Positions 16,289 through 64,000 are shown, counted from the first letter of the stretch. The stretch: DNA of 64,000 nucleotides from an uncultured Actinomycetota bacterium (GCA_963712935.1 CAVQJX010000016.1:14350-78349); one strand, 5' to 3'. Numbers and translations are program-made. The notes: generated by a model not told the origin, from the letters alone.

Positions 16289-17084
16289 TCAGATCGGTCC
16301 GGCGACTCTCACCGGCGGGTGCCTGGGGATCGTGCGTCCTGGCCGACGCTCGCGGGCGTCGGCGAAGCGGACCCTGGACGGTTGCCACGTCGAACCAGTC
16401 AGCGAGGCGATCTCGCTCAGGAATGCCGCACGGACCTGGTCTGACTCGAGGCTGCCGTGCCACATGGTGCCGAAGACGTGGCCGGCACCTGCACCGTCGA
16501 GGAACGGGTCGTCCTGACCGAGCTGGATGCGGCCGTGGTGGATCTCGTATCCCGCAGCGGTCACGCCCAGAGCCTCGCCCATGGGCAGCCGCAGCACCTT
16601 CGCGGACGAGAACTCCGTGCGGACGTCGAGCAGCCCCAAGCCGTCGGCACCCGCACCGACCGCTCCTTCGGCGCCCTCCGGATCAGCGATGTGATGACCG
16701 ACCAGCTGGAACCCTCCGCACACCCCGAGCACTGGGCGCCCGTTCGCGGCGTGCCGTCGGATCGCCTGATCGAGGCCGTGCTCGCGCAGCCACGCGAGGT
16801 CGGCCAGCGTGGCGCGGGTGCCCGGGAGCACGAGCAGGTCTGCGTCCCCGATGCTGCGTCCCTCGGACACGAAGCGGACGTCGACACCGGGTTCGATTCA
16901 TGGCCGGCTCCGGCACGGCCTTCGCCGCCAGCGCCTGGATCCACTGCGCGCGACCGATACCGCGGCGGGCCAGAGCCCGGCAGAGCGCCGTGGTGACGAC
17001 GGACTTGCCGGCATCCGACGTCGTCCCGGCCACGAGTAGCGCCGACGCGTTCCCGGAGGACGCAGCAGCCTGGGCGAGTTTCAT
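16289..17084 (-). pseudogene. cobQ: cobyric acid synthase (CobQ) relic: N-terminal P-loop fragment joined out of frame to the glutamine-amidotransferase domain
   Basis: ORF 16683..17084 starts LLVAGTTSDAGKSVVTTALCRALARRG (CobQ N-terminus) and then loses similarity. ORF 16289..16870 carries (I)EPGVDVRFV..DADLLVLPGTRATLADLAWLR..VLGVCGGFQ (CobQ GATase). Together they span about 265 codons against an expected size near 490. Confidence 0.7.
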
Positions 17085-17131
17085 AACCGACGCTGACGAT
17101 GTGGGTCTCGGTGGATGAGTGAGCAGCGCCC

Positions 17132-17434
17132 TCAGGCTCGCTGCATCTTCCAGGCAAGGTCGATGGCGGCGTGCACCGCATGAGGCTGTGCCCGGTCGAG
17201 GTAGGCCTCGACCTTATGATGCGCCTCCATCCGAGGCGGCACGCCGAAAGTGTCCGGGTAGGTCTCGAGCAGGCGTTCTCGCTCGCTCAGAGGGACCCGG
17301 ATCACCACCGTGTTCTGGTCCTGCAGCCGCACAACCAGGCGGTCATGGACGTACCAAGCAGGACGATTGTCGGTTCCCTTGCGCTTGACCTGCGGTAGCG
17401 ACTCGGCATACCGGCCAACCTCGTCGATGGTCAC
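17132..17434 (-). CDS. MmcQ/YjbR-like small protein
   Basis: 100 aa. The overall pattern (LPQV..K.., VVIRVPLSERERLLETYPDTF) is reminiscent of the YjbR family. Weak call. Confidence 0.4.
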   Translation of the reverse strand: MTIDEVGRYAESLPQVKRKGTDNRPAWYVHDRLVVRLQDQNTVVIRVPLSERERLLETYPDTFGVPPRMEAHHKVEAYLDRAQPHAVHAAIDLAWKMQRA

Positions 17435-17509
17435 GTCCCTAGCGTAAGCGGACGCGCAGTCGCCGGCCCGGCAGGTCGACCTCGCTGGGGCTCATCGGTT
17501 GCGCTGATG

Positions 17510-18721
17510 TCAGGCGATCGGTGCGCGGCCGAGCGGGACCGTTGCCGAGCGGTTGGCACCGCTCTGGTCCTTCCAGGTCACCTTGACGCGCTCACCGGGA
17601 GCGGTCTTCGCCAGCTTGTTGCGCAACTGGTCGGCCGAGGTGAGGGTCCTTCCGTTCAGCTTCGTGATCGTGTCGCCCACGGAGACACCAGCACGGGCGG
17701 CGGCGCCACCGTCGGTGACCTGGACAACCCGTGGAGCCGTCGTCGACGGATCCAGCCAGACCCCCAGGTAGCCGTGGTAGCCGAGGTCGATGGTGGCAGT
17801 TTCCTTGCCGGCGAGGATCTGGTCGGCGACCGACCGCACGGTCGAGACGGGGATCGCGTACCCGGTCACGGACCGGCTTCCGGTGGAAGCTGCGACATTC
17901 ATCCCGACGACGGAGCCGGCCGCGTTCAGAACCGCGCCCCCTGAGTCACCGGGAACGACATACGCGTTCAGCTCGATGAGACCGGTCAGGCGGTTCGTCG
18001 TGCCGTCGTCGTTCCGGACCGTGATGTGCTGATCGATCGCGGCGACCGTGCCGGTGGAGGCCGTCAGGGCGCCACCGTCGCCCCCGGCGTCACCGACCGC
18101 GGTCACCGGGTCGCCCTCGGCCGCAGCCTTGGAGGCTTCCTTGACGGGCGTCAGCCCGCTCGCGTTCCGCAGCTTCAACACGGCCACATCAGCGGTCGAG
18201 TCGCCGCCGACGTACTTCGCGGTGTAGGTCTTCCCGGTCGAGACGACAGTCACCTTCAGCGAGGTCGCTCCTTCGACCACGTGATGGTTCGTCACCACCG
18301 TCCCGGCGGAAGACAGGATGAAACCGGTGCCGGCCCCCTTCCCATTCGTCAACGTCGAGGAGATCTCCACCAGGCCCACCGACTGCGCCGCGGTGGCGTC
18401 GGCGGCTGACTCCGGCGCTGTAGCCTCGGGCGCCGAGTCGCTGTCGTGGTCTGGGGCGCGTGGGGGCGTGGAGGGTCCACCCCAGCCAGGACGTCCGTGC
18501 CCGTGGTCGTCGGTGTCTGTCGAGCCTTGCTTCGTTGATCGCGACTGTGTCGTCGAGGAGCTCGTCTGGTTCGCGTCGTCCTGTTGGTGGTCCGCGAGGG
18601 CGGCCCCACCGGCAGCACCCACACCGACCAGCAACAGCGACGCACCCGCAAGCCCGATCCGGCGGCGGTTGTTGCCCGGACGTCGGCCGCTGTCGGCGTG
18701 GTCAATATCCGTGTCGCTCAC
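17510..18721 (-). CDS. HtrA/DegP-type S1C serine protease with C-terminal PDZ domain
   Basis: GTG at 18721. One TM segment, a Ser/Thr/Asp-rich linker, a trypsin-fold core (VVTNHHVV, GDSGGAV) and a PDZ-like tail (GDTITKLNGRTLTSADQL). Confidence 0.85.
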   Translation of the reverse strand: MSDTDIDHADSGRRPGNNRRRIGLAGASLLLVGVGAAGGAALADHQQDDANQTSSSTTQSRSTKQGSTDTDDHGHGRPGWGGPSTPPRAPDHDSDSAPEATAPESAADATAAQSVGLVEISSTLTNGKGAGTGFILSSAGTVVTNHHVVEGATSLKVTVVSTGKTYTAKYVGGDSTADVAVLKLRNASGLTPVKEASKAAAEGDPVTAVGDAGGDGGALTASTGTVAAIDQHITVRNDDGTTNRLTGLIELNAYVVPGDSGGAVLNAAGSVVGMNVAASTGSRSVTGYAIPVSTVRSVADQILAGKETATIDLGYHGYLGVWLDPSTTAPRVVQVTDGGAAARAGVSVGDTITKLNGRTLTSADQLRNKLAKTAPGERVKVTWKDQSGANRSATVPLGRAPIA

Positions 18722-20235: not shown

Positions 20236-21614
20236 TCAGTGCTGCCAACGGGTCGCGGCCGCGAGCGCTTCGTCGCTGACCCCATCGAACAGCTCGAGCT
20301 CGCTCTCGCGCAGCGCGATGACCGATGCCGACAAGGCGCCACCGAAGGCCGTGCGCAGCGTGTCGTCCTCGGCGAAGGCGTCGGTGGCCGCGCGCAGGTC
20401 CTGCGGCAGCCGGGCGATGCCGCGTTCGGTCAGGACCGCTTCGTCCAGGACGGCCGGGTCGACGTCGACAGGCTCGGGCAACGAAGCGCCGGTCGCCATA
20501 CCGTCCATGCCGGTGGCGAGCAGGCCGGCCAGCACGAGGTAGGGGTTGGCGTGCAGGTCGAAGCACTTCACCTCGAGGTTCGCCGCCCACGGGCTGCTGC
20601 CGGTCGAGCCGGTGACCATCCGCAGCGCCGCCTCACGGTTCTCCAGCCCCCAGCACGCGAACGTGCCCGCCCAGTGCGACGGCACCTGGCGCAGGTAGCT
20701 CACCGCACTCGGTGCGCCGACCGCCATCAGGGCCGGCAATGCTGCAGCACCCCGGCGCCGAAGGCCTCTCCATCGGCGGTCAGGCCGAACGGGACCGTCG
20801 CCGTCGGCCATCAGGTTCTTGCCGTGCGCGCCACAGGCTCAGGTGGACGTGGCCGCCGTTCCCGACGCCGGGGACGGCGACCTTGGGCGAGAACGACGTC
20901 CGCAGCCCGTAGAGGTCGCCCACGGCGCGAATGGTGGAGCGGACGAGCACGGAGGTGTCGGCCGCGTCGACCGGGGACCTCCGGCGCCACCGACAGCTCG
21001 AGCTGTCCTGGTGCGTACTCCGGGTGGAACTGTTCGACCGTCACCCCCTCGTCGGTCAACGCCGAGATGACGTCACGGGCGTAGTCGGACACCTCGACCA
21101 GCCGGTTCATGCCGTACCCCGGCCCACGCATCGCCGGGTGGAAGTCGTCCTCGGGCTCGTCGCTGACGACCCACTCGATCTCGAACGCCGCCTTGACGTC
21201 GATCGACTGCTCGCCGAGCCGGTCGACCAGGTCCTGCAGGAGCAGCCGGTTGCACTGCGCGTGCGGCGCGCCGGTCTGCTCGTACCGGTCGGCCGGCGCC
21301 CACGCCCAGCCGGGTGGCCCGGCCAGCGGAACCACGCGTCGGACGTCAGGGATGATGCGGAGATCGCCGACGGGCGCCCGACCGTCCGGGTCGGCGGCGA
21401 TCCAGTCATCGAACCGGAACCGGTCGAACGACGTCGAGATACCGACACCCCACGCTGCCGTATGGGGGAGACGTGCGAGCGGTACGCACTTGACCCGGGC
21501 GATCCCCGAGTTGTCGACGAAGGTGATGGCAACGGCGGCGACATCCTGCTCCCGCAACCGGGAGACGACTTCTTCCGCGGCTGCGGCGCGCGACTCGCGT
21601 TCGGCGACGTCCAC
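20236..21614 (-). pseudogene. glutamine synthetase family (GlnA-like gamma-glutamyl ligase) gene with about four frameshifts
   Basis: ORF 20811..21614 is an N-terminal GS beta-grasp plus FHPEYAPGQLELSVAP. A third frame then reads VDAADTSVLVRSTIRAVGDLYGLRTSFSPKVAVPGVGNGGHVHLSLW. ORF 20236..20811 follows (MADGDGP..PALMAVGAPSAVSYLRQVPSHWAG..NLEVKCFDLHANPYL). An internal compensating pair restores FGLTADGEAFGAGVLQH. Confidence 0.8.
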
Positions 21615-30226: not shown

Positions 30227-31054
30227 ATGACACTCGTTCTGGCGGCGACGCCGATCGGCCGGATCGAGGACGCTCCGCCGCGGCTGGCGACGGAGCTCGC
30301 CTCCGCGGACGTGATCGCAGCCGAGGACACCCGTCGGCTGCGGCGGCTGCTGGGAGAGCTCGGGGTCGAGACTTCGGCGCGGGTGGTGTCGTACTTCGAG
30401 GGCAACGAGGTCGCTCGTACGTCGGGCCTGGTGGAGGCCCTGGTCGCCGGTGAACGCGTCGTGCTGGTGACCGATGCCGGTATGCCCAGCGTCTCCGACC
30501 CGGGCTACCGGCTCGTGTCAGCGGCGGTGGCTGCGGGCGTCGAGGTCACGGCGGTGCCGGGGCCGTCCGCGGTCCTGATGGCTCTCGCGGTCTCGGGCCT
30601 GCCGGTCGACCGGTTCTGCTTCGAGGGCTTCCTGCCGCGCAAGTCCGGTGAGCGGCGCCGACGGTTGGCCGAGCTGGCCGACGAGCCGCGCACGATGGTG
30701 TTCTTCGAGGCGCCGCATCGCACCGCCGAGTCGTTGCTGGCGATGGGGGAGGCGTTCGGGCCCGAGCGTGCGGTGGCGGTGTGTCGCGAGCTGACCAAGA
30801 CCTATGAGGAGGTACGCCGCGGCAGCCTTGCCGACGTCAGCGCCTGGGCAGCTGACGGAGTCCGGGGCGAGGTCACGATCGTCGTCGACGGTGCGCCGGC
30901 CATGCCTCCAGCCGAGCTCGACGCCGACCAGCTGCGCTCGCTCGTCGATGCTGCCGCGGCCGACGGGTTGTCCCGCAAGGACGCGGTGTCCCAGGTGGCG
31001 GCCCGGACCGGCATCCCCCGCAAGACCGTCTACGCCGCCGCCCACTCTCGTTGA
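30227..31054 (+). CDS. rsmI: 16S rRNA (cytidine1402-2'-O)-methyltransferase
   Basis: ATG at 30227. LVLAATPIGRIEDAPPRL..IAAEDTRR, DAGMPSVSDPG and FEAPHR motifs. Confidence 0.9.
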   Translation: MTLVLAATPIGRIEDAPPRLATELASADVIAAEDTRRLRRLLGELGVETSARVVSYFEGNEVARTSGLVEALVAGERVVLVTDAGMPSVSDPGYRLVSAAVAAGVEVTAVPGPSAVLMALAVSGLPVDRFCFEGFLPRKSGERRRRLAELADEPRTMVFFEAPHRTAESLLAMGEAFGPERAVAVCRELTKTYEEVRRGSLADVSAWAADGVRGEVTIVVDGAPAMPPAELDADQLRSLVDAAAADGLSRKDAVSQVAARTGIPRKTVYAAAHSR

Positions 31055-31181: not shown

Positions 31182-32054
31182 ATGGAGATCGGCCTGCACG
31201 TCTCGGACTTCACCTGGCCCGGCGGCCCGGACACGCTCGCCGACGACCTCACCCGGGTGGTGACGACGGCCGACGACCTCGGGTTCGCGCGGATCAGCGT
31301 GATGGATCACGTCTGGCAGATCGGTGTCAACGGGCCGCCCGAGGGGCCGATGCTCGAGGCGTACACCGCTCTGGGCTTCATCGCGGCCCGGACCTCCCGC
31401 GTACGGCTTCTCGCCTGGGTGACCGCCGTCGTCTACCGGGAGCCAGGCATGCTGGCCAAGCTCGTGAGCACGCTCGACGTGCTGTCGAAGGGCCGCGCCT
31501 GGCTCGGCGTCGGTGCCGCGTGGAACGAGGACGAAGCACGCGGCCTCGGGTTGCCCTTCCCACCGACCGCCGAGCGTTTCGAGCGGCTCGAAGAGGCCGT
31601 GCAGATCTGTCAGCAGATGTGGAGTGCTGACGACGGCCCGTATGCCGGCCGGCACTACCAGCTGACCCGGACGCTCAACTCGCCACAGCCGATCAGCAGG
31701 CCGCACCCACCGATCCTCATCGGCGGCGGTGGCGAGAAGAAGACGCTGCGCCTCGTCGCGCAGTACGCGCAGGCCTGCAACCTCTTCGACAGTCCCGAAC
31801 TGGCCCACAAGCTCGAGGTGCTGCGAGCCCACTGCGACGCGGTTGGCCGCGACTACGACGACATCGAGAAGACGGTGATGCTGCGGCTCGACCCCGGCGA
31901 GCACGGTGAGCACGTCGACACGCTGCTCGAGGACCTGCACCGGCTGTCCGAGCTCGGCGTCGCCGAGACTCACGGCAAGGTTCCCCATGTCTCCGACCTC
32001 AAGCGGCTGGAGATCCTCGGTGATCGGGTGATCCCGGTGGCCGCCGCCTTCTGA
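31182..32054 (+). CDS. LLM class F420-dependent oxidoreductase (Rv1855c-like)
   Basis: ATG at 31182 after GAAGGGAG. ISVMDHVWQIG, LDVLSKGRAWLGVGAAWNEDE and PPILIGGGGEKKTLRLVA are typical of luciferase-like monooxygenase family proteins. Confidence 0.8.
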   Translation: MEIGLHVSDFTWPGGPDTLADDLTRVVTTADDLGFARISVMDHVWQIGVNGPPEGPMLEAYTALGFIAARTSRVRLLAWVTAVVYREPGMLAKLVSTLDVLSKGRAWLGVGAAWNEDEARGLGLPFPPTAERFERLEEAVQICQQMWSADDGPYAGRHYQLTRTLNSPQPISRPHPPILIGGGGEKKTLRLVAQYAQACNLFDSPELAHKLEVLRAHCDAVGRDYDDIEKTVMLRLDPGEHGEHVDTLLEDLHRLSELGVAETHGKVPHVSDLKRLEILGDRVIPVAAAF

Positions 32055-33864
32055 GCTACCCGCACGTCGTCCGTGGGCCGGCGAAACCGGCTCGACGCGG
32101 CCCCTAGGATTGGGGCCATGCCCGACAGCCCCGCCAAGGCGTTCTACGTCACCACGCCGATCTACTACGTGACGGCCCCGCCCTCCATCGGCAACGCATA
32201 CACGACGGTCGCTGCCGACGTCCTGGCACGGTGGCACCGGCAGATGGGTGAGGACGTCGTCTTCCTGACGGGTACCGACGAGCACGGCCAGAAGGTCCTC
32301 GAGGCAGCCGAAGAACACGGTGTGACGCCGCAGGAGTGGGCCGACCGGCTCGTCGAGACCGAGTGGCAGCCTGTCCTTTCGGTGATCGACGCCAGCAACG
32401 ACGACTTCATCCGTACGACGGAGCCACGCCACACCGAGCGGGTGCAGGAGTTCTGGCAGGCCGTCTACGACGCGGGTGACGTCTACGAGGGCAGCTACGA
32501 AGGGCCGTACTGCATCTCGTGTGAGGAGTTCAAGCTGCCGTCCGAGCTGCTCGACGGCAACGAGGGCCAGAAGCTGTGCCCTATCCACGAGCGACCCGTC
32601 GAGACGCTGTCGGAGGTCAACTACTTCTTCGCCCTGAGCAAGTACGCCGATCGGCTGCTCGCGCTGTACGAGGACGAGCCCACGTTCGTGCAGCCCGACA
32701 GTGCGCGCAACGAGGTCATCTCGTTCGTGCGGCAGGGGCTGCAGGACCTGTCGATCTCGCGCTCGACCTTCGACTGGGGGATCCCGGTGCCGTGGGACGA
32801 GAAGCACGTCTTCTACGTGTGGATCGACGCGCTGCTCAACTACGCGACCGCGGCGGGCTTCGGGACCGACCCGGAGCGGTTCGCCCGCATCTGGCCGGCT
32901 GACGTGCAGCTCGTCGGCAAGGACATCCTGCGCTTCCACGCGGTCATCTGGCCGGCCATGCTGATGGCGGCCGGCGTCGACGTACCGCGGCGGGTCTTCG
33001 CGCACGGCTGGCTGCAGGTCGGCGGTCAGAAGATGAGCAAGTCCAAGGCGACGGCCATCCATCCGAGCGAGATCGTCGACACGTTCGGCTCGGACGCCTA
33101 CCGCTACTACTTCACGCGGACGATCTCCTTCGGCTCCGACGGCAGCTTCTCGTGGGAGCACATGAGCGCGGTCTACACGAGTGAGCTCGCGAACGGGCTG
33201 GGCAACCTCGCTTCGCGGGTCACCGCGATGGTGGGCAAGTACTTCGACGGGGTTCTGCCGGAGCAGGGTGCGCAGGGTCCCGCCGAACTGGCCCTGGCCG
33301 ACGCGCTTGCCGCAGCCGCCCGTACCGCCGACGACGCGATCGAGCGGGTGGCGATCCATGAAGCGGTGGGTGCGGTCGCCGACTTCGTGGGATTGGTCAA
33401 CGGCTACGTCACCGAGCAGGAGCCATGGAAGGTGGCCAAGGACGACAGCCCGGCCGGCCAACGGCGCCTGGCGACGATCCTGTACGCCGCTGCCGAGTCG
33501 CTGCGCGGCGTGGCGGTGCTGCATCACGCGGTGATGCCGCGCACCGCGGCCGCATTGTGGGCGGCCCTCGGCGCTGACGCCATCGGACCGCTGGCCGATC
33601 AACGCATCGCCGAGGTCGGGACGTGGGGCCAGCTGCCTGCAGGAGCGATGTTGACCAAGGGCGCGTCGCTGTTCCCCCGGATCGACACGGTGGAGGCAGG
33701 GCCTGGGGGCGCCGCTCGATGAGCGGCCCGCTGCGGGCGCGCGCAGGTGACGACGAGACGGGCCGTCGGGACGTGACCCGGCCACCGCTGCCAGATCCGC
33801 TGCCGAGTCCGGTCGTCGACAACCACTGTCATCTCGACATCGCGGATGGCGACGGGTGGTTGGA
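31379..33864 (+). repeat. tandem duplication, copy A (LLM 3' part + metG + first 146 nt of tatD)
   Basis: Aligned directly by eye with 33865..36348. The offset is 2486 nt, then 2484 nt after two 1-nt gaps. Confidence 0.95.
32118..33722 (+). CDS. metG: methionine--tRNA ligase, copy 1
   Basis: ATG at 32118. YVTTPIYYVTAPPSIGNAYT (HIGH-region equivalent), KMSKS motif QKMSKSKATAI, CxxC knuckle. 534 aa. Confidence 0.95.
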   Translation: MPDSPAKAFYVTTPIYYVTAPPSIGNAYTTVAADVLARWHRQMGEDVVFLTGTDEHGQKVLEAAEEHGVTPQEWADRLVETEWQPVLSVIDASNDDFIRTTEPRHTERVQEFWQAVYDAGDVYEGSYEGPYCISCEEFKLPSELLDGNEGQKLCPIHERPVETLSEVNYFFALSKYADRLLALYEDEPTFVQPDSARNEVISFVRQGLQDLSISRSTFDWGIPVPWDEKHVFYVWIDALLNYATAAGFGTDPERFARIWPADVQLVGKDILRFHAVIWPAMLMAAGVDVPRRVFAHGWLQVGGQKMSKSKATAIHPSEIVDTFGSDAYRYYFTRTISFGSDGSFSWEHMSAVYTSELANGLGNLASRVTAMVGKYFDGVLPEQGAQGPAELALADALAAAARTADDAIERVAIHEAVGAVADFVGLVNGYVTEQEPWKVAKDDSPAGQRRLATILYAAAESLRGVAVLHHAVMPRTAAALWAALGADAIGPLADQRIAEVGTWGQLPAGAMLTKGASLFPRIDTVEAGPGGAAR

Positions 33865-33907
33865 CATCGCGGCCCGGACTTCCCGCGTACGGCTTCTCGC
33901 TGGGTGA
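33719..33907 (+). pseudogene. duplication-junction chimera: tatD codons 1-49 fused in frame to the LLM oxidoreductase interior, then truncated
   Basis: MSGPLRARAGDDETGRRDVTRPPLPDPLPSPVVDNHCHLDIADGDGWL(D) followed by IAARTSRVRLLA from LLM. A 1-nt gap relative to copy A (GCCTGG -> GCTGG) creates TGA at 33905. Confidence 0.85.
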
Positions 33908-33916
33908 CGCCGTCGT

Positions 33917-34538
33917 CTACCGGGAGCCAGGCATGCTGGCCAAGCTCGTGAGCACGCTCGACGTGCTGTCGAAGGGCCGCGCCTGGCTCGGCGTCGGTGC
34001 CGCGTGGAACGAGGACGAAGCACGCGGCCTCGGGTTGCCCTTCCCACCGACCGCCGAGCGTTTCGAGCGGCTCGAAGAGGCCGTGCAGATCTGTCAGCAG
34101 ATGTGGAGTGCTGACGACGGCCCGTATGCCGGCCGGCACTACCAGCTGACCCGGACGCTCAACTCGCCACAGCCGATCAGCAGGCCGCACCCACCGATCC
34201 TCATCGGCGGCGGTGGCGAGAAGAAGACGCTGCGCCTCGTCGCGCAGTACGCGCAGGCCTGCAACCTCTTCGACAGTCCCGAACTGGCCCACAAGCTCGA
34301 GGTGCTGCGAGCCCACTGCGACGCGGTTGGCCGCGACTACGACGACATCGAGAAGACGGTGATGCTGCGGCTCGACCCCGGCGAGCACGGTGAGCACGTC
34401 GACACGCTGCTCGAGGACCTGCACCGGCTCTCCGAGCTCGGCGTCGCCGAGACTCACGGCAAGGTTCCCCATGTCTCCGACCTCAAGCGGCTGGAGATCC
34501 TCGGTGATCGGGTGATCCCGGTGGCCGCCGCCTTCTGA
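33917..34538 (+). pseudogene. 3' fragment of LLM F420-dependent oxidoreductase (duplicate, lacks its own start and N-terminal 80 codons)
   Basis: From VVYREPGMLAKL to the stop, the protein is identical to 31182..32054. I found one silent nt difference. It is out of frame with the junction ORF because of two 1-nt gaps. Confidence 0.85.
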
Positions 34539-34601
34539 GCCACCCGCACGTCGTTCGTGGGCCGGCGAAACCGGCTCGACGCGGCCCCTAGGATTGGGGC
34601 C

Positions 34602-43269: not shown

Positions 43270-43324
43270 TCAAGACTCTTGACGTGGAGACACTGCCTCA
43301 GGCATAGTATCTTGACGTCAAGAT
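43270..43324. promoter_or_regulatory. two perfect palindromes sharing TCAAGA/TCTTGA half-sites (candidate MarR operators)
   Basis: TCAAGAcTCTTGA at 43270..43282 and ATCTTGACGTCAAGAT at 43309..43324, in the marR/tam divergent region. Confidence 0.55.
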
Positions 43325-43346
43325 AATATGCGAAGGGAGGGCACCG

Positions 43347-44980: not shown

Positions 44981-44989
44981 AGTCACCGC

Positions 44990-46032
44990 ATGACCGACCA
45001 CGTCTCCACCGACACCGCTGCCCACACCCGGGCCGACTTCATCGCCGGGCTGCCCAAGGCCGAGCTCCACGTGCACCACGTCGGCTCGGCATCGCCGCGG
45101 ATCGTGGCGGAGCTGGCCGGACGGCACGAAGACACCCCGGTGCCTCGCGATCCCGAGCTGGTCGCGGACTACTTCACGTTCACCGACTTCGCGCATTTCG
45201 TCGAGGTCTACCTCTCGGTCGTCGACCTCGTGCGCACACCCGAGGACATCAGGACCCTCACGTACGAGATCGCCCGCGACATGACGACGCAGTCGATCCG
45301 CTATGCCGAGCTGACCTGCTCGCCGCTACACGTCCGTCATCCGCGGCATCGCCCCCGAGGCGTACTGCGAAGCCATCGAGGATGCGCGGGTGGCTGCCGA
45401 GCGGGACTTCGGGATCGTGCTGCGCTGGTGCTTCGATATCCCGGGTGAGTCCGGCGTTCCAGCGGCCGACGAGACGATCCGTGTCGCGACCGAGCTACGT
45501 CCCGGAGGGACTGGTCTCGTTCGGCCTCGGAGGCCCCGAGATCGGTGTGCCGCGCCCGCAGTTCAAACCGCACTTCGACGCAGCGCGCGCCGCGGGACTG
45601 CGTTCGGTCCCGCATGCCGGTGAGACCACCGGACCGCAGACCATCTGGGACGCGTTGCAGGTGCTCGGTGCCGAGCGGATCGGTCACGGCACGTCCGCGA
45701 CCCAGGACCCCGCCCTGTTGGCCCACCTGGCCGAGCATCAGATCCCGTTGGAGGTGTGCCCGACGTCGAACATCGCCACCCGGGCCGTCGCGTCCTTGGA
45801 CGACCACCCGATCAAACAGATGTACGAGGCCGGTGTCACGGTCACGATCAACTCCGACGATCCGCCGATGTTCGGCACGACCCTCAACCAGGAGTACGGC
45901 GTTGCGGCCCGGCTTCTCGGCCTCGGCGAGTCCGGCCTCAAGGCCTTGGCGCAGAACGCCGTCGACGTGTCGTTCGCCGACGACGACGTGAAGAAGCGGT
46001 TGACGGAGGAGATCCGCGCCTACTCCGCCTAG
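44990..46032 (+). pseudogene. add: adenosine deaminase with two +1 frameshifts
   Basis: Frame 1: LPKAELHVHHVGS...IRYAELTCSP. Frame 2 (from about 45326): YTSVIRGIAPEAYCEAIEDARVAAERDFGIVLRWCFDIPGESG...ELRP. Frame 3 (from about 45504): EGLVSFGLGGPEIG...SVPHAGE...ERIGHG...LEVCPTSN...TINSDDPPMFG. Confidence 0.85.
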
Positions 46033-46046
46033 CTCGTCAGCGGCCC

Positions 46047-46649
46047 TCAGCTGGTCGGCGGAGTGTGCAAGGTGGGCTTCTGTTCGAGTCCATACAGCCC
46101 GTTCCAGGCGAGGTTGACCACGTGCGCGGCGACCTCGTTCTTGCTGAACTTGCGGGCGTCGAGCCACCACTGCCCTGTGGTGCCCACCATTCCGACGAGC
46201 ATCTGGGCGTACATCGGTGCGTACTTGGCGTCGAACCCGCGGGTCCGGAACTCCTCCTCGAGGATGTACTCCACCCGTGAGGCGATGTCGCCGATGATCG
46301 AGACGAAGGAACCCGTCGCCGATCCGATCGGTGAGTCGCGCACGAGGATGCGGAAACCATCGGAGGACTGCTCCACGTAGTCGAGGAGTGCACCGGCGGC
46401 CTGCTCGAGCAGGTCGCGGGGATGGCCGGCCGTGAGCGAGCTGCGCATCATGCCGAGCAGCTGTCGGACCTCACGGTCGACGACCACGGCGTACAGACCT
46501 TCCTTGCCGCCGAAGTGCTCGTACACGATCGGTTTGGACACTTCGGCGCGCGAGGCGATCTCCTCGATCGAGGTGCCTTCGAAGCCACGTTGCGCGAACA
46601 GCGCCCGGGCGATCTCGATGAGCTGTTCACGTCGCTCGGCGCTGGTCAT
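46047..46649 (-). CDS. TetR/AcrR family transcriptional regulator
   Basis: 200 aa. N-terminal HTH RREQLIEIARALFAQRGFEGTSIEEIASRAEVSKPIVYEHFGGKEGLY. Lies downstream of the desaturase on the same strand. Confidence 0.9.
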   Translation of the reverse strand: MTSAERREQLIEIARALFAQRGFEGTSIEEIASRAEVSKPIVYEHFGGKEGLYAVVVDREVRQLLGMMRSSLTAGHPRDLLEQAAGALLDYVEQSSDGFRILVRDSPIGSATGSFVSIIGDIASRVEYILEEEFRTRGFDAKYAPMYAQMLVGMVGTTGQWWLDARKFSKNEVAAHVVNLAWNGLYGLEQKPTLHTPPTS

Positions 46650-46836
46650 CCGGGCACGTTGATGGCGCTTGGTCTTGCCCGAACCGCCCTTGCCGGGGCT
46701 CGCCCGCCGGCGGGACCACTGGCGGCGGCAGCCTTCGCGGGTGGCTTGAGGTGTGGTCGAGCGGAGGAGGTCGGGACGTCGGTCGAGTCGTTCGAGGGCT
46801 CGCTCACGTCTGCATTGTCCCTGACCGGGTCGAGCG

Positions 46837-47823
46837 TCAGCTCGTCGGCTGGACCCGCTTCACGTCGAGGCGCTCCTTGACCGGCCATCGAACGGCGCTG
46901 ATCCACCCGAACTTCTCCAGCGCCCAGATGATGCGCGCGGACGTGTCGATCTGGCCCTTCAGAACGCCGTGGCGGGCGCACGTCGGGTCGCTGTGGTGCA
47001 GGTTGTGCCACGACTCACCCATGGAAGGGATCGCCAGCCACCACACGTTGCCGGACTTGTCGCGGGACTTGAAGGGGCGCTCGCCGACCGCGTGGCAGAT
47101 CGAGTTGATCGACCAGGTGACGTGGTGCAACAGGCTCACCCGGACCAGCGAACCCCAGAAGAAGGCCGTGACCGCACCTTGCCAGGACCAGGTCAAGAGG
47201 CCACCGGCAACGGCAGGGAGAGCCAGCGAAACGAAGACGAACCACGGGAACGCACGCGAGATCCGGACGATGTCCTTGTCCTTCAACAGGTCTGGTGCGT
47301 ACTGGCGCTGCGAGGTCTGCTCGGAGTCGAACAACCACCCCATGTGGGCGTAGAAGAGGCCCTTGATGAGCGCGGGGACGGTGTTGCCGTAGCGCCACGG
47401 CGAGTGCGGGTCGCCCTCGCGGTCGGAGAACTTGTGGTGCTTGCGGTGGTCGGCGACCCACCTCACCACCGGCCCCTGGATGGCCATCGAGCCGGCGACG
47501 GCGAGCGCGATCTTGACCGCCCGGTTGGGCTTGAACGACCGGTGCGTGAAGAAGCGGTGGAAGCCGACGGTGATGCCGTGGCCGGTGATCGCGTACATGA
47601 CCGCCATGATGAGGATGTCGCTCCAGCCGAGCCAGCCACCCCAGGCGACCGGAACCGCTGCCGCGACGGCGAGGAACGGCAGCCCGATGAAGATGCCCAA
47701 CGCGATTTGCTCCGCCCGCGACTGCTGGTCACCCCCGAGTGTGCCCAGCGCCTCCTCGAGCTCGTCGATGGCAGGCGTTTCGGCGGCCGGGGGTAGAACG
47801 GCAGTTGCTGGTGTCATGCGCAT
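46837..47823 (-). CDS. membrane acyl-CoA (stearoyl-CoA type) fatty acid desaturase
   Basis: His boxes HRFFTH, HRKHHKFSD and HNLHH. N-terminal TM pairs. 328 aa. Confidence 0.85.
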   Translation of the reverse strand: MRMTPATAVLPPAAETPAIDELEEALGTLGGDQQSRAEQIALGIFIGLPFLAVAAAVPVAWGGWLGWSDILIMAVMYAITGHGITVGFHRFFTHRSFKPNRAVKIALAVAGSMAIQGPVVRWVADHRKHHKFSDREGDPHSPWRYGNTVPALIKGLFYAHMGWLFDSEQTSQRQYAPDLLKDKDIVRISRAFPWFVFVSLALPAVAGGLLTWSWQGAVTAFFWGSLVRVSLLHHVTWSINSICHAVGERPFKSRDKSGNVWWLAIPSMGESWHNLHHSDPTCARHGVLKGQIDTSARIIWALEKFGWISAVRWPVKERLDVKRVQPTS

Positions 47824-47853
47824 GGTCCTCAGCGGTGAGAGTCGTGGGTCTTA

Positions 47854-47884
47854 CCTACGCTACCGTAACCTACGGTTGCGTAGG
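47854..47884. promoter_or_regulatory. 31-bp near-perfect palindrome upstream of the desaturase-TetR operon (candidate TetR operator)
   Basis: CCTACGCtACCGTAaccTACGGTtGCGTAGG, 31-61 nt upstream of the desaturase start. Confidence 0.5.
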
Positions 47885-48005
47885 TATCCAAGCGTCGCCC
47901 GCGAGTCCTCCCTGAATCTGGGCGTGTCGCCCTATGGCAGACTGTGCCCACGCAGGGGTGCGCCGCGAAAGCTTCTTCGAGAGCTCACGGGGCACGCCAT
48001 CGCAA

Positions 48006-48078
48006 TCCCCTGTGGGGTAACCCGGCAGCCCGCGAGCCTTTGAAGCTTGAGGTCCTGGATCGAAGCCAGGCAGGGGAG
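48006..48078 (+). tRNA. tRNA-Gln (anticodon UUG), no encoded CCA
   Basis: Folded by hand. Acceptor TCCCCTG/CAGGGGA with U1-A72 and discriminator G73. U8. D arm GGGT/GCCC with GG in the loop. Anticodon stem CGAGC/GCTTG, loop CTTTGAA. 4-nt variable loop. T arm CCTGG/CCAGG with loop ATCGAAG (A at position 54 is atypical). Confidence 0.75.
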
Positions 48079-48120
48079 CGTAGGACCCCACCCCGGGGGT
48101 GTCGACGGCAAGGAGCACAG

Positions 48121-49572
48121 GTGAGTTCGGACCGCCCGGCGGCAGTCATCATCCTCGCGGCGGGTGGTGGCACCCGGATGAAGTCCGCCGTCCCCAAGGT
48201 CTTGCACCGTATCGGCGGCCGCAGCCTGATCGGTCACGTGCTGCACGCGGCCACCGGGCTGGATCCCGAGCACCTGGCCGTGGTCGTGCGCCATGAGCGG
48301 GATCTCGTCGTTGCGCACGTCGACGACGTCGCGATCGAGCTCGGCGTCACCGCGCTGATCGCTGACCAGGACGACGTCAAGGGCACCGGCCGTGCTGTCC
48401 AGTGTGGTCTGGCCGCGCTACCCGATGACCTCACGGGCACCGTCGTCATCACCTACGGCGACGTACCGCTCCAGACCACTGAGACGTTGCGCGCCCTCGT
48501 GGAAGCGCACGTCGAGCACGCGGACGCGGTCACCGTGGTGACCGCCGAGCCGGCTGACCCGTTCGGGTACGGGCGGGTCCTCCGTGACGAGTCCGGCCAG
48601 GTCATCGAGATCGTCGAGGAGAAGGACTGCACGGACGAACAACGCGCCATCCGCGAGATCAACGGCGGCATCTTCGCCTGCGACGCCGCGGTGCTGCGCG
48701 CGATGCTCGACCAGGTCGACACCAGCAACGCCCAGGGCGAGGTCTACCTCACCGACGTGGTCGGCCTCGCGCACCGGTCCGGGCAGCGCGTGGGCGCCGT
48801 CGCCGTCGACGACCTGTGGCAGACCGAAGGCGTCAACACCCGACGCCAGCTCGCCGCGCTCGGGCAGGAGCTGAACCGACGGGTGCTCGACTACTGGATG
48901 AGCGAGGGCGTCGAGGTGATCGATCCCGGCGCGACCTGGGTCGACGTCACGGTCACGCTGGCTCCTGACGTGCGGCTGCTGCCCGGTGTGCAGCTGCACG
49001 GCGCGACCGTGGTGGCCGACGGGGCGTCGATCGGACCGGACACGACGTTGTCCGACGTCCAGGTCGGCGAGGGCGCGAGCGTCGTGCGTACCCACGGCGT
49101 CGGCGCCGTCCTCGGCGCCGGTTGCTCAGTCGGCCCCTTCGCGTACCTGCGTCCGGGCACGGTCGTCGGGCGCGTGGCCAAGATCGGGACCTTCGTCGAG
49201 ACGAAGCAGGCGGTGCTCGCCGAGGGTGCGAAGGTGCCCCATCTGTCGTATGTCGGAGATGCCGACATCGGGCCTGGCACCAACATCGGGGCCGGCACGA
49301 TCTTCGCCAACTACGACGGGGTCTCCAAGCACCGGACCCACGTCGGCGCGGAGGCCCGGACCGGGGCGAACAACACCTTCGTTGCGCCAGTCTCGATCGG
49401 CGATGGCGCGGTCACCGGTGGGGGCACCGTCGTACGACGAGACGTTCCACCAGGGGCGTTGGCCGTCAGCACCGGACCCCAACGGCACATCGAGGACTGG
49501 GTCGAGCGCAAGCGGCCCGGCTCGGCGGCAGCGGAGGCGGCCAAGGCTGCCCAGGAGGAGAGCCAGCAGTGA
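48121..49572 (+). CDS. glmU: bifunctional UDP-N-acetylglucosamine pyrophosphorylase / glucosamine-1-phosphate N-acetyltransferase
   Basis: GTG at 48121 after AAGGAG. VIILAAGGGTRMKS motif and C-terminal hexapeptide repeats. Confidence 0.95.
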   Translation: MSSDRPAAVIILAAGGGTRMKSAVPKVLHRIGGRSLIGHVLHAATGLDPEHLAVVVRHERDLVVAHVDDVAIELGVTALIADQDDVKGTGRAVQCGLAALPDDLTGTVVITYGDVPLQTTETLRALVEAHVEHADAVTVVTAEPADPFGYGRVLRDESGQVIEIVEEKDCTDEQRAIREINGGIFACDAAVLRAMLDQVDTSNAQGEVYLTDVVGLAHRSGQRVGAVAVDDLWQTEGVNTRRQLAALGQELNRRVLDYWMSEGVEVIDPGATWVDVTVTLAPDVRLLPGVQLHGATVVADGASIGPDTTLSDVQVGEGASVVRTHGVGAVLGAGCSVGPFAYLRPGTVVGRVAKIGTFVETKQAVLAEGAKVPHLSYVGDADIGPGTNIGAGTIFANYDGVSKHRTHVGAEARTGANNTFVAPVSIGDGAVTGGGTVVRRDVPPGALAVSTGPQRHIEDWVERKRPGSAAAEAAKAAQEESQQ

Positions 49573-51631: not shown

Positions 51632-52228
51632 ATGACGTACGACGGTTGGATCGTCGTCGGGCTGGGTAATCCTGGCCCTTCGTATGCCGCCACCCGCCAC
51701 AACGTCGGATACGACGTGGCGGACGAACTCGCGTCGCGGATGTCGGGCTCGTGGAAGGCACACAAGTCAGGGCGCGCCCTGGTCGTCGAAGGCCGGCTGG
51801 CAGGCATTCCCGGCGTCCGAACCGTTCTCGGTCGCGGCCGTTGCTACATGAACGAGTCCGGCGGCCCGGTCTCAGGGCTGCTGGCGTTCTTCAAGGCCAG
51901 TCCGGACCAGCTGATCGTGATCCACGACGAGCTCGACCTGCCCTACGGCGATCTCCGTATCAAGTTCGGCGGCGGCGACAACGGTCACAACGGGCTCAAG
52001 TCGATCCGCACCTCCCTCGGGACGGGCGACTACTACCGGATCCGCGTGGGCGTAGGCCGTCCGCACGGACGTCAGGCGCCGGCCGACTACGTGCTCAGTC
52101 CCTTCTCCTCGACCGAGCGTCGAGAGCTGGATCTCCATGTCAACCGCGCCGCAGATGCCGTGGAGAGCGTGCTGACCAAGGGCTTGACAAGGCGCAGAAC
52201 CTCTTCAACAGCTGATGCCCGGGCCTGA
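51632..52228 (+). CDS. pth: peptidyl-tRNA hydrolase, C-terminal 9 residues replaced through a 1-nt frameshift
   Basis: IVVGLGNPGPSYAATRHNVGY, MNESG and GGGDNGHNGLKS motifs. After ...VLTKGL the conserved ending DKAQNLFNS-stop (stop at 52213..52215) lies in the +1 frame. The current frame reads TRRRTSSTADARA-stop. Confidence 0.9.
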   Translation: MTYDGWIVVGLGNPGPSYAATRHNVGYDVADELASRMSGSWKAHKSGRALVVEGRLAGIPGVRTVLGRGRCYMNESGGPVSGLLAFFKASPDQLIVIHDELDLPYGDLRIKFGGGDNGHNGLKSIRTSLGTGDYYRIRVGVGRPHGRQAPADYVLSPFSSTERRELDLHVNRAADAVESVLTKGLTRRRTSSTADARA

Positions 52229-52337: not shown

Positions 52338-52699
52338 GGGGACGACGGTTGGGCCCGGGAACGTCAGCCGACGGCATCGGCTTGGTGAGGGGGCTCCGCC
52401 CGCCGGACCCGTAGGAGTCGAGCGACCTTGTCCACAGCTGCACCCGCCGTGGCCGGCGTCTCCACAGTGGGGCGGCCGGCGGCTGTGAGGTCAGCAAGAG
52501 CCGGTTCGATGCTGACGATGGCCGAGAACACGACGACCTCGGGAATCGAGGTGGACCACGAGAGTCTTGACGAGTTCGCCCGCGCCTTGTGCGCATCGTG
52601 AGCGAGTGACCTGGATCTGTGGCCGCGTCGACACCGTGGTTGATCTCGACAGTCTCGAAGGCCGCGTCCTCACCCTCCTCGTGAAGCGGCGTTCGGATC

Positions 52700-53100
52700 A
52701 TGATCCGTGCTGCGAACCGACCTTTGAGGGAGTTCGACCGTCTGGCGGAAGCCGTCCTGGGAAGTCAGGCGAGGCTGGCGGCCTGCCGATCGTCGCCACC
52801 TCCATGGCGACATTCGACGAGGAGGTGACCTGGCGTGGAGGCGGACTCCAGCGACCTGACTGTTGAGCAGGCTGTGCTGACCGTCCACGCCATCGGCGTG
52901 CCCAGCCCGACGCGTGGAAGAGTGATGGGGAGCGCCGCTACGGGACGTTCAGCCGGCAGTCCTGGGCGAGACCCTCGACATCGACCGGTGCGCCGACTAC
53001 GAAGACGGTGTCTGTCGATCCGGCTTCCGGTCGCCGAGCAGGCGAAGCCCCGCAAGATCGAGTCGGACGTCGAAGGCGGCATCAGAGTGTCGCCAGCTGA
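52700..53100 (+). pseudogene. Hsp20/alpha-crystallin small heat-shock protein relic with at least five frame changes
   Basis: Pieces in successive frames: MIRAANRPLREFDRLAEAVLGSQARLAA / LPIVATSMATFDEEV / PGVEADSSDLTVEQAVLTVHA / DAWKSDGERRYGTFSRQ / LGETLDIDRCADYEDGV / LSIRLPVAEQAKPRKIE. Joined together they give a canonical actinobacterial Hsp20. Confidence 0.75.
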
Positions 53101-61015: not shown

Positions 61016-61555
61016 ATGGCAACGCGTCCACGCTCCAGCTCGACTCCCGGCCCCGGTCGGGGACGTCCGCGTGCGTCGGGGGGCCGCGCGAGCGGCGTCC
61101 GTAGCACGACCCGGGTGTCCGCGCCGGCCGCGACCGCGCAGGTCGCTTCTTCGCGCGCGAAGTTCACCGGCCGGGCTGCCGTGCTGCTGCTGGTCATGGC
61201 CGTGCTCGCCGTCTCCTACGCCTCGAGCATGCGCGCGTGGCTCAAGCAACGCAGCGAGATCAACACCCTCAACGCCCAGATCGCTGATCAACGCAGCGAC
61301 GTGGCGTCACTCGTCCAGGCCAAGAAGCGATTGCACGACCCGGCGTACATCGAGTCCCAGGCCCGGTTGCGGTTCGGCTGGATCATGCCGGGCGAGACCG
61401 GGTTCCGGGTGATCGGGTCCGACGGAGAGGTGCTGTCCAACGGCACGAGCACGTTGTCGCAGCCGGTCAAGCCGGTCAAGAAGGACCCCGAATGGTGGCA
61501 GGGTGCCTACGGCAGCGTGGTCGCGGCCGGCGAGGTCCCGAGCTCCAACCGGTGA
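61016..61555 (+). CDS. ftsB: septum formation initiator (FtsB/DivIC family)
   Basis: ATG at 61016. Basic N-terminus, TM segment AVLLLVMAVLAVSY, coiled coil, then DPAYIESQARLRFGWIMPGE. Confidence 0.8.
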   Translation: MATRPRSSSTPGPGRGRPRASGGRASGVRSTTRVSAPAATAQVASSRAKFTGRAAVLLLVMAVLAVSYASSMRAWLKQRSEINTLNAQIADQRSDVASLVQAKKRLHDPAYIESQARLRFGWIMPGETGFRVIGSDGEVLSNGTSTLSQPVKPVKKDPEWWQGAYGSVVAAGEVPSSNR

Positions 61556-62038
61556 CCGACGCCCGCGACCTGGCCGCCGTGCAGGCTCAGCTGGGACGCC
61601 CCCCGCGCGACACCGTCGGCATCGCGCACCGCTGCCCGTGCGGAAATCCCGATGTCGTGGCCACGGCCCCCAGGCTTTCGGACGGGACACCGTTTCCCAC
61701 GTTCTACTACCTGACCTGCCCACGTGCCGCGTCCGAGATCGGCACCCTCGAGGCCAGCGGTCTCATGCGGGAGATGACCGAGCGCCTCGCCCAGGACGAG
61801 GACCTGGCTCAGGCACTGTCGCCGGGCGCACGAGGACTACCTCGACCGGCGGCGTCAGTACGGCGACGTGCCCGAGATCGAGGACATCTCGGCCGGAGGC
61901 ATGCCTGACCGGGTCAAGTGCCTCCACGTGTTGGTGGCGCATGCGTTGGCCGCCGGCCCCGGGGTGAACCCCCTCGGTGACGAGGCGCTGGCCCTGCTCC
62001 CTGAGTGGTGGGCGTCCGGTCCCTGCGTCGACCTCTAG
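61552..62038 (+). pseudogene. DUF501 domain protein (Rv1025 position) with one frameshift near 61817
   Basis: Frame 1: GRPPRDTVGIAHRCPCGNPDVVATAPRLSDGTPFPTFYYLTCPRAASEIGTLEASGLMREMTERLAQDEDLAQA. The +1 frame continues RRAHEDYLDRRRQYGDVPEIEDISAGGMPDRVKCLHVLVAHALAAGPGVNPLGDEAL to TAG at 62036..62038. Confidence 0.8.
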
Positions 62039-62390
62039 CGCAGCGGCTCTCCGCAGCTGACGTGGATGTGCAGATGCTTGGAGTCCTGGTACGTCCCCAG
62101 GTTGGTGAGCACACGGGCAGCTCCGTGAGCGTCGTGCACGTCAGCGGCGATCGTCGGTGACCACCGCGAACAGCGCTCGCACGAGTGGCTCGTCATCGTC
62201 TGTCAGACGTCGTCAGAGAGGGGACATGGCGCTTGGGAACGACGACGATGTGCACCGGCCAGAAGGGTCGGGTGTGGTGATACGCCAACACTTCTGCGGT
62301 TTCTCGCACGACATCCAACTGGTCGCCGTTGGGCAGCGCGACATCGCAGTAGAAGTCATCGCCTCCGTAGCTGTCGGCCGCGTCAACCAT
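62035..62390 (-). pseudogene. HIT (histidine triad) family protein with two frameshifts
   Basis: MVDAADSYGGDDFYCDVAL..LAYHHTRPFWPVHIVVVPKRHVPSL in one frame. DDDEPLVRALFAVVTD in the next. IAADVHDAHGAARVLTNLGTYQDSKHLHIHVSCGEPLR-stop in the third. The length of 356 nt is not a multiple of 3. Confidence 0.75.
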
Positions 62391-62524
62391 GCGGGTGAGT
62401 CTGCCAAGAGTTGGCCCGCGCCGTGATCCTGCCCCGCCGAGCGACTGTCTTCGAGCGTCGGAGGTCCGATCAGCCGACGACAGCCGTAGGCTCGGGGCGA
62501 CCGTCGAGCAAGCGAGGAGAGCCG

Positions 62525-63476
62525 ATGACCCGGGTGGCTGCTGTCGACTGCGGCACGAACTCACTGCGCCTGCTCGTCACCGACCTCGACCCCTCGGCGG
62601 GCACAGCCACACAGGTCGACCGGCGTACGGCGATCGTGCGGCTGGGGCAGGACGTCGACAGGACGGGCGCCTTCGCCCCCGAGGCGCTGGAGCGGACGTT
62701 CGCGGTGGTCGACGAGTACGCCACGGTGATCCGCGGCCTCGAGCGTGAGCGCAACCCGCTTCGTGGCCACCTCCGCCGCACGCGACGTCAGCAACCGCGA
62801 CGAGTTCGTTGACGGAGTGCGCACCCGGCTCGGAGTGGACGCCGAGATCATCAGCGGCGACGAGGAAGCCACCCTGTCCTACGCAGGAGCGACGCGCGGA
62901 CTGACCCAGGACGATGGCGTGCCGGCCCCCGTGCTCGTGGTCGACATCGGCGGCGGGTCCACCGAGTTCGTCATGCGCCTCGACGACGGCGACCCGATCA
63001 AGGGCCAGTCGCTCGACATCGGCTCGGTCCGGCTCACCGAGCGCTACCTGGCCGACGATCCCCCCACGCCCGACCAGGTGGCCGCCGTCACCCGGGCCGT
63101 CGACGACGCTCTCGCCACCCTCGACGTACCGATCGACGCCGCCCGAACGCTCATCGGGGTAGCCGGGACCGTCACCACGATGGCCGCCCGCGTGCTCGGC
63201 CTCGACGCGTACGACCCGGAACGCGTGCACGGGTCCCGGCTGGCCCGGGCCGACGTGCTGACCGCCGTGGACGAGATCGTTGCGATGTCGGTCGCCGATC
63301 GCCGCGCGCTGCCCTTCATGCCGTACGGCCGGGCCGACGTCATCGGGGGCGGAGCCTTGATCCTCGGCGCCGTCGTACGCCGCCTCGACCTCGACGATCT
63401 CCGCGCCTCGGAACACGACATTCTCGACGGCATCGCCTGGTCGCTGGTCGACCCAACGTTCCGAGCGACCACGTGA
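62525..63476 (+). pseudogene. ppx: exopolyphosphatase / guanosine pentaphosphate phosphohydrolase (Ppx/GppA) with one frameshift near 62744
   Basis: ATG at 62525 after AGGAGA. VAAVDCGTNSLRLLV...FAVVDEYATVIRGL is in the frame of ORF 62411..62812. (V)SATRFVATSAARDVSNRDEF...VVDIGGGSTEF onward is in the frame of ORF 62745..63476. Confidence 0.85.
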
Positions 63477-64000
63477 CGGCGTTGCCGCACCCGATCTCGG
63501 GAAAGCTGTTCACGAGCCCCGTGCCGGCAGGGAGCGGGTGGCCGGGCGATCCCGCGGCCGACGACACCGCGGTGGCCACCGACCCGGACGCGTACGCCGG
63601 CTGGCCGACCGAGCCTCCACCGTCCCGGCCCTCGACGCAGCCGTCTCGGTCTGCCGGGCCTGTCCCCGTCTCGTTGCCTGGCGCGAGGACGTCGCGGTCG
63701 ACAAGCGCAAGTCGTTCGCCGACGAGCCCTACTGGGGTCGGCCGATCGCGGGCTGGGGCGACGAGTCCCCACGCGTCCTCCTCGTCGGGCTGGCACCGGC
63801 AGCCCACGGGGGCAACCGGACCGGGCGGATCTTCACCGGCGACCGGTCCGGCGACTGGTTGTTCGCCTCCCTCTACCGCGTCGGGCTCGCCAGCCAGCCC
63901 ACCAGCGTGCACGCCGGCGACGGGCAGCGACTCATCGGCACCCGGATGGTCGCGGCGGTCAGGTGCGCACCGCCCGCGAACAAGCCGACGACGGCAGAGC
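63473..64000 (+). pseudogene. uracil-DNA glycosylase (family 4/5 type), 3' end beyond window, frameshift near 63590
   Basis: GTGA overlap with the ppx stop. Frame A: [34 protein letters not shown]. Frame B: [84 protein letters not shown]. Confidence 0.75.

Follow-up and report, generated by a model that had tools for sequence, protein, structure and literature searches.

Consensus errors of the classical Nanopore type favour homopolymers. For soil, the authors of the Microflora Danica catalogue described Nanopore-associated errors in metagenome-assembled genomes (MAGs) of lower coverage, together with high microdiversity (PMC12313526), and found short-read polishing to be needed for bins below 40x (PMC9262707). 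As for natural mutation, 79% of the spontaneous small indels of Mycobacterium smegmatis lie in simple repeats, insertions are 2.1 times more numerous, and the ratio of indels to substitutions in mutation-accumulation lines is 0.24 (PMC4938668). Against this background, a stretch of 64,000 nucleotides from an uncultured Actinomycetota bacterium (GCA_963712935.1, CAVQJX010000016.1:14350-78349; the whole stretch is referred to as the window) was analysed, in which a series of genes, including a GS-like gene, add, hsp20, ppx and udg, are interrupted by shifts of the reading frame. An earlier inspection of the same DNA without database searches (the sequence-only reading) had counted at least 20 such disruptions in clusters and had interpreted them as decay of dispensable functions under relaxed selection, in the course of reductive evolution or after a mutator history, with a locally poor consensus as the fallback.

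By comparison with near-identical sister assemblies, the disruptions were confirmed at the places described, 20 of 22 falling in divergent genes, and the decay reading was not supported; the earlier interpretation as a whole is partly supported. The frameshifts are probably consensus errors in mixed-strain regions and not a lineage-wide loss of function, and the finding is most likely a warning about assembly quality rather than biology. The evidence for this consists of the mosaic divergence of the window, the concentration of indels in the divergent patches, the spectrum of the indels, the intact state of the same genes in the sisters, and the breaks of sister contigs at the patches. The sister comparison and the co-location thus favour the former fallback of a locally poor consensus.

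Co-location of frameshifts with divergent patches

The window has a DNA GC content of about 69%, and its ABC-F protein, upon a scan of species-representative genomes, matched exclusively Nocardioidaceae and Propionibacteriales, with the top match in the Microflora Danica soil MAG MFD04212.bin.1.186, whose locus (L006) shares 93-94% DNA identity with the window at 27.9-52.1 kb. The source is most likely an uncultured Nocardioidaceae population with several co-occurring strains. Two sister MAGs were found through exact-protein matches, GCA_049285195.1 (contigs L001 and L004) and GCA_049589115.1 (contigs L002, L003, L005 and L166), both of them fragmented short-read assemblies with contigs of 10-21 kb, which jointly span window positions 4353-49065 and 50634-64000 with an identity of 97.7-99.8%. 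Lesions were scored against these sister contigs plus L006 and more distant loci. A scan of metagenome contigs with the desaturase gave relatives of at most 83% amino acid identity, unusable for indel calling, and one locus (L089) with an intact Hsp20.

Relative to the sisters, the window is a real mosaic of alleles. A low-divergence class of 33 genes (35.3 kb), which includes the ABC importer, the two-component system, zwf, PMT, metG copy B, tatD, mfd and eno, differs by less than 0.4%, most of its members by 0%, and contains two coding indels, both sitting just past the junction of a tandem repeat (37 and 44 bp; see below). The divergent class of 21 genes (16.2 kb), at 0.4-4.8% from the sisters, contains 20. 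Besides hsp20 with its approximately seven frame switches, a total of 22 one-base coding indels was identified, and 20 of them are therefore found within 31% of the gene length (binomial P = 1e-8). The observation that long genes stay intact was correct, with no uncompensated indel in mfd, both metG copies, eno, ispE, PMT, zwf, ABC-F, glmU, prs and the ABC importer. The argument drawn from it, that long genes should suffer most from random errors, does not hold because mfd, zwf, PMT and the importer lie in sister-identical stretches without errors. Statistics do not bear out a division into spared essential and broken dispensable genes: the essential pth is hit, and most of the spared genes in the divergent class (NUDIX, VOC, TetR core, desaturase, MazG, rsmI, L25 and ABC-F) are dispensable as well.

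The alternation is seen block by block. From 21778 to 30600 (amino acid permease, Cys/Met PLP enzyme, amidohydrolase, EamA, zwf, cyclase and PMT) the window is near-identical to the sisters, with 0-2 mismatches per 500 bp, zero gaps against L003/L004 and no indels, and from 53186 to 58900 (plus strand; inositol monophosphatase family, mfd and lipoprotein) there are five substitutions in 5.2 kb of genes and 0 indels. In the 3' half of rsmI, a short stretch (30676..30997, plus strand), in which L004 ends, is again divergent, with 12 substitutions and 0 indels. The stretch 39191..49065 is uniformly divergent, at 1.2-2.3% from L166, and its left edge coincides with the abutment of two sister contigs. 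The ends of the sister short-read contigs (20483, 20739, 21850, about 30996 and 39190/39191) are located at or within patches, and both L004 and L005 end inside the GS-like gene, at 20483 and 20739. Strain mixtures cause contig breaks of this kind in short-read assemblies. These breaks, together with the difference between the sisters in the GS-like gene, indicate that the patches are polymorphic within populations.

At 39190/39191, two contigs of one sister MAG meet exactly where the window turns from identical to 1-2% divergent, and near 50545, just past prs, contigs of both sister MAGs start; the two positions look like shared assembly-graph branch points. Within 39-49 kb, four of the eight indels relative to the sister are intergenic (43343, 46036/46044 and 47845) even though intergenic DNA makes up 5.5% (P = 5e-4), indicating that some of these differences reflect ordinary variation between alleles, which is tolerated outside genes.

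The glutamine-synthetase-like (GS-like) gene (20236..21614, minus strand) lies inside the divergent patch 20254-21765 and has six 1-bp indels (deletions at 20739 and 21315, and insertions at 20790, 20824, 20980 and 21321), followed by two further insertions (21654 and 21732) in the intergenic stretch upstream. After reversion of the indels it reads through 376 amino acids with 0 stops, and its substitutions are 53 synonymous to 21 nonsynonymous over both sister alignments. Where L004 and L005 overlap (20483-20739), 12 mismatches to the window were found in L005 and three in L004, the sites being different, so that the 3' part of this gene circulates in at least three haplotypes. The GNAT acetyltransferase gene (44135..44594, plus strand) carries a +1 insertion at 44182-44184, codon 17, and its repaired open reading frame (ORF) is identical to the sister protein. 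In add (adenosine deaminase; 44990..46032, plus strand), +1 insertions are located at 45325 and 45504, and the repaired product of 346 amino acids is 99% identical to the intact sister protein P0121, with 17 synonymous to 3 nonsynonymous changes. A -1 deletion at 52186 in pth (51632..52228, plus strand) replaces the last 10 amino acids and lengthens the ORF by four codons. Near the right end of the window, the DUF501 gene (61552..62038, plus strand) has a +1 insertion at 61812, the HIT-family gene (62035..62390, minus strand) +1 insertions at 62151 and 62206, ppx/gppA (62525..63476, plus strand; 3.4% divergent from the sisters) a +1 insertion at 62744, and the uracil-DNA glycosylase family gene udg (63473..64000, plus strand, running off the window; 13 synonymous to 5 nonsynonymous changes) a -1 deletion at 63589. 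The HIT-ppx intergenic region (62407-62473) has been rebuilt relative to the sisters by about 12 small insertions that add 23 bases within 66 bp; as a hypervariable promoter region it is to be kept apart from the coding frameshifts.

In the contigs of the independent sister MAGs, 99-100% identical, pth, DUF501, HIT, ppx, udg, add, GNAT, TetR and the GS-like gene are all called at full length and with the Pfam domains expected of them, and in the lesion comparison the sisters agree with each other at every site covered by both. Apart from cobQ, none of the window-specific lesions was found in the independent assemblies (both sister MAGs, L006 and other loci), and the GNAT and add insertions are missing also from more distant relatives of other projects.

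Two of the affected loci differ from the sisters by real length or cassette variation. The TetR regulator gene (46047..46807, minus strand) retains an intact HTH core ORF (46047-46649), and its N-terminal tail runs over a variable repeat (46678-46723) that is 46 nt longer than in the sister (L166, about 7519) and 59 nt shorter than in L006 (16290-16400). The 46-nt length difference places the start codon of the sister out of frame, bearing out the suspicion that the TetR tail is disrupted, and the repeat polymorphism itself is real. The repeat unit is approximately GCTGGAGCCCGCCTT on the plus strand, and L006 has 105 nt more than the sister.

The hsp20 cassette (52700..53087, plus strand) is missing from the sisters, which have other sequence in its place. 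By frameshift-aware alignment to the intact metagenome Hsp20 of L089 (Pfam HSP20, E = 8e-21), about seven frame switches were detected within 0.35 kb, and along the corrected path 76 of 138 amino acids are identical, with no stop. The region upstream (52378..52710, plus strand), which in the sisters is the N-terminal part of a weak winged-helix ORF, contains 12 indel events. When the count begins with the pth lesion at 52186 and runs to 52710, the window differs from the sisters by 13 indel events and eight substitutions; natural divergence has the opposite proportion, which speaks against decay. The difference between an hsp20 and a winged-helix cassette at 52711-53087 is real. At this place (L001, 2166-2555) the sisters hold about 390 bp of largely unrelated sequence, completing the weak winged-helix (HTH_27/MarR-like) ORF; the two cassettes are nevertheless 71% identical over 186 nt. 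An inversion was considered as the cause of the unalignable segment and was rejected, as a minus-strand match was missing.

Indel spectrum, selection and the case for decay

Apart from cobQ, the coding lesions specific to the window are all 1-bp indels, and their reversion restored eight of the eight genes tested to full length with 0 stops. Contrary to the earlier remark that several lie in short homopolymers, one of the 22 touches a stretch of at least three identical bases, and eight of the 14 insertions copy no neighbouring base, which is unlike natural slippage. The local density of indels reaches 1-2%, with six in about 0.6 kb of the GS-like gene and about seven in 0.35 kb of hsp20, where it is highest. 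Inspected by eye, the indel sites have no surrounding motif in common, for instance a methylation site. The idea that the insertions represent both alleles of a single-nucleotide polymorphism kept side by side, which predicts a position beside third codon positions, was dropped for want of a signal, as nine of 12 are located there against eight expected.

Substitutions in the patches are biased to synonymous sites (63:14 in metG-A and 13:0 in TetR, taken singly), indicating that real alleles under purifying selection are present. The ratio of synonymous to nonsynonymous changes was 115:48 in the disrupted genes and 170:51 in intact genes of the same patches, with no significant difference (P = 0.19), so that the comparison of dN/dS between disrupted and intact genes, suggested as a check on decay, gave it no support. 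No clear rise of dN/dS toward 1 was found in the disrupted genes, nor an even spread over codon positions in the GS-like gene, and, cobQ apart, the disrupted genes contain neither nonsense mutations nor multi-base deletions.

These data bear directly on the possibility that the genes are genuine recent pseudogenes, formed when divergent tracts were gained by homologous recombination and afterwards struck by real one-base frameshifts under relaxed selection, an explanation that we regard as unlikely. In its favour, recombination typically leaves synonymous-biased tracts in a mosaic of identity, several genes in the divergent tracts are spared by indels (P = 0.03), cobQ shows that at least one real gene remnant exists in the lineage, and spontaneous actinobacterial indels are insertion-biased and mostly of 1 bp. 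Recombination, however, offers no cause for frameshifts to concentrate in imported tracts, and the hits are multiple (six, about seven, two and two per gene), which implies long neutrality, yet changes at codon positions 1 and 2 are few: in the GS-like gene the three positions have 5, 3 and 27 changes (P = 0.015 versus the neutral load expected at the ratio of 0.24). The lack of nonsense mutations and larger deletions, and of the indels themselves from every independent assembly, also stands against it, as do sequence contexts that are not slippage-prone; from the natural spectrum at most about three non-repeat indels are expected, and at least 19 were observed (P ~ 3e-10). The divergence of neighbouring genes from the sisters is 0-0.1%, with zero synonymous change, which leaves no time for neutral erosion; the divergent tracts must therefore be different alleles. 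On these grounds relaxed selection, reductive evolution and a mutator history are not supported as explanations.

A different way of keeping the frameshifts real is to suppose that they were made during recombination itself, imported 2-5%-divergent DNA triggering error-prone repair synthesis in an actinobacterium without MutSL; cleavage of mismatched heteroduplex by NucS, or polymerases of the DinB/DnaE2 type, for example, could then leave non-templated one-base indels within the imported tracts. We consider this very improbable; if true, the tracts would be local hot spots of gene inactivation, and the tandem copy of metG would have come from the same process. Least credible of all is that the window is true and the sister assemblies are wrong, being chimeric or frame-corrected. 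They are indeed fragmented MAGs, but two separate assemblies agree at all shared sites, neither the GNAT nor the add insertions occur in more distant relatives from other projects, and the intact state yields conserved full-length Pfam domains.

The cobQ remnant (16289..17084, minus strand) stands apart from the other lesions. It consists of an N-terminal P-loop piece of 43 amino acids (16956-17084) and a GATase_3 ORF of 201 amino acids (16289-16897; Pfam E = 9e-37), with about 190 amino acids of the middle gone between them. The same region in L005 (11937-12740) shows 0 mismatches and 0 gaps, and because this base-identical copy, including the large deletion, comes from an independent short-read sister, the lesion is genuine and not specific to the window. 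The disruption of cobQ was thus rightly noted, though not as decay of this window: it is a true shared loss and the sole genuine lesion among the broken genes. The 201-residue GATase_3 ORF might, even so, be expressed as a stand-alone amidotransferase.

Mixed strains, sequencing platform and the LLM-metG repeat

In the explanation by consensus error, which we consider the probable one, strains sharing identical sequence would give a perfect consensus, and where strains differ by 0.5-5% or by a cassette, the assembly would track one haplotype with a poor consensus, leaving single-base indels that break the frame. A low depth of the individual strain, polishing on a mixed pile-up, or the two combined could account for the poor consensus. 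In the organism itself, the broken genes would then be intact, and the seeming bias to dispensable genes would follow from the shortness of the variable patches, long housekeeping genes sitting in shared stretches.

The window is probably part of a long-read metagenome assembly of the Nanopore type. It passes through the sister contig breaks and through a 2.5-kb repeat of which the first 600 nt are near-identical, which suggests long reads. Its truncated products (152 amino acids of add and a 95-residue N-terminal fragment of ppx) are on record from one 87,683-bp NCBI/ENA contig without protein accessions, the same signature as that of the Microflora Danica Nanopore MAGs, which are the closest named relatives. 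In the same gene neighbourhood of 80 related loci, frameshifts with strong support hit conserved genes in eight of the 29 from Microflora Danica Nanopore MAGs and in none of the 51 from isolates or other MAGs (P = 1.5e-4). The genes concerned include rsmI/PMT, tatD, rsmA, rpfB and others, each call being supported by 10-20 isolate proteins; the six-frame tblastn scan for frameshifts was noisy on unfiltered ORFs in DNA of 69% GC, and was filtered by support. The frameshifted loci are L011 (about 3682), L020 (6446), L026 (3959), L039 (4094), L055 (8554), L061 (7394), L066 (20162) and L069 (5219, 20270 and 20805), all positions being approximate.

Several observations weigh against consensus error as the explanation. 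The indels have no association with homopolymers, which weakens the classical form of Nanopore error and not the form due to low depth or a mixed pile-up. The 22 listed indels, of which two are intergenic, comprise 14 insertions and eight deletions, an excess of insertions that matches the natural spectrum of M. smegmatis as well, and the mosaic of identical and 2-5%-divergent tracts is equally expected from real homologous recombination. Within the divergent class, moreover, nine of the 21 genes are hit, an over-dispersed distribution (P = 0.03), with 0 indels in metG-A (1.6 kb, 4.8% divergent), ABC-F, the desaturase and glmU. Over-dispersion and indel-free divergent genes together indicate that a single uniform error rate is inadequate.

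The tandem repeat is composed of two copies with 96.5% self-match over 2486 bp. Copy A (31379..33864, plus strand) comprises LLM from nt 228, metG-A and the first approximately 145 nt of tatD. As far as about 32.0 kb it resembles the sisters, and from there to the junction it is 4.5% divergent, with metG-A intact. Copy B (33865..36348, plus strand) is near-identical to the sisters, and its LLM (33865-34538) lacks the first 76 codons by 5' truncation at the duplication boundary and carries the deletions at 33901 and 33908. Identity to the sister is 95.55% for A and 99.84% for B, and A is just as distant from L006. At the junction (33864/33865) there is no microhomology, and a substitution at 33880 and the two 1-bp deletions follow within 45 bp; past this cluster, the next difference in copy B is a single substitution at 35183. 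No second LLM-metG copy was found in the sisters or L006, each of which has a single copy.

On balance, we lean toward the view that two haplotypes of one locus have been placed in tandem. A real tandem duplication, for instance a foreign allele captured via homology-facilitated illegitimate recombination, which would provide a second, divergent methionyl-tRNA synthetase, is the less probable of the two and deserves to be kept in mind. metG-A is intact, with its synonymous-biased changes relative to the sister allele; the left tract end falls in shared sequence and the right end is abrupt, as for one homologous and one illegitimate crossover; and the repeat unit begins 670 nt ahead of the divergence, which is not the simplest form of a mis-linearised bubble. 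Against a real duplication are the single copy in the sisters and in the related species of L006, a junction that resembles a poorly supported join in its lack of microhomology and in the changes that crowd behind it, and a difference between A and B of the same size as that between co-occurring haplotypes elsewhere in the window. The duplication of metG noted earlier thus stands as two copies in the window and not as a simple paralogue expansion, since it is window-specific and one copy is a 4.5%-divergent allele. Antisense to rsmI-LLM-metG-LLM-metG runs an open frame of 1803 codons (30873-36284, minus strand), which is a by-product of high GC and the repeat and no gene.

The gene order of the window includes GS-like, permease, zwf, PMT, rsmI, LLM, metG, tatD, rpfB, rsmA, ispE and ABC-F, and, in its right part, tRNA-Gln, glmU, prs, L25 and pth, and further on mfd, mazG, eno, ftsB/DivIC, DUF501, HIT, ppx and udg. 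An Rfam scan of the window gave no match other than tRNA-Gln.

Taken at face value, the MAG would be misannotated as losing hsp20, add, ppx, udg, HIT, DUF501 and the GS-like gene and as duplicating metG, and such miscalls would distort metabolic and evolutionary inference for an uncultured soil lineage. In long-read MAGs, clusters of frameshifts can track strain-variable patches and not homopolymers, and can mimic function-selective decay because long core genes tend toward strain-shared stretches. Near-identical independent assemblies reveal this pattern without the reads.

Comparison with known systems

The reductive evolution of the Mycobacterium leprae type is similar in that many neighbouring genes are interrupted, core genes remain open and one true remnant (cobQ) is present, but the window is different with respect to nonsense mutations and multi-base deletions, which are lacking, and to dN/dS, which is not clearly raised. 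In addition, the flanking genes here are 0% diverged from relatives with intact copies, and the many frameshifts per gene are not matched by neutral substitutions. Within-species mosaics made by homologous recombination likewise alternate sister-identical tracts with 0.5-5%-divergent, synonymous-biased tracts; frameshifts inside the tracts are not predicted by them. The LLM-metG repeat resembles the false duplications that arise from uncollapsed haplotypes, with its tandem copies, one common haplotype, one 4.5%-divergent allele and an error-rich consensus after the join, but differs in that the repeat unit holds 670 nt of shared sequence before the divergent part.

The residual indel errors of Nanopore MAGs, as detected by truncated-protein tests of the IDEEL type, are comparable in that single-base indels split conserved ORFs, are gone on reversion and are missing from independent assemblies; they are also frequent in Nanopore soil MAGs of the same family and are a problem of low coverage (PMC9262707, PMC12313526). 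The indels of the window are different from these errors with respect to homopolymers, to which they are not bound, and to their distribution, which is limited to strain-variable patches and is not contig-wide. This confinement to patches without homopolymers points to mixed-strain pile-ups or low strain-specific depth.

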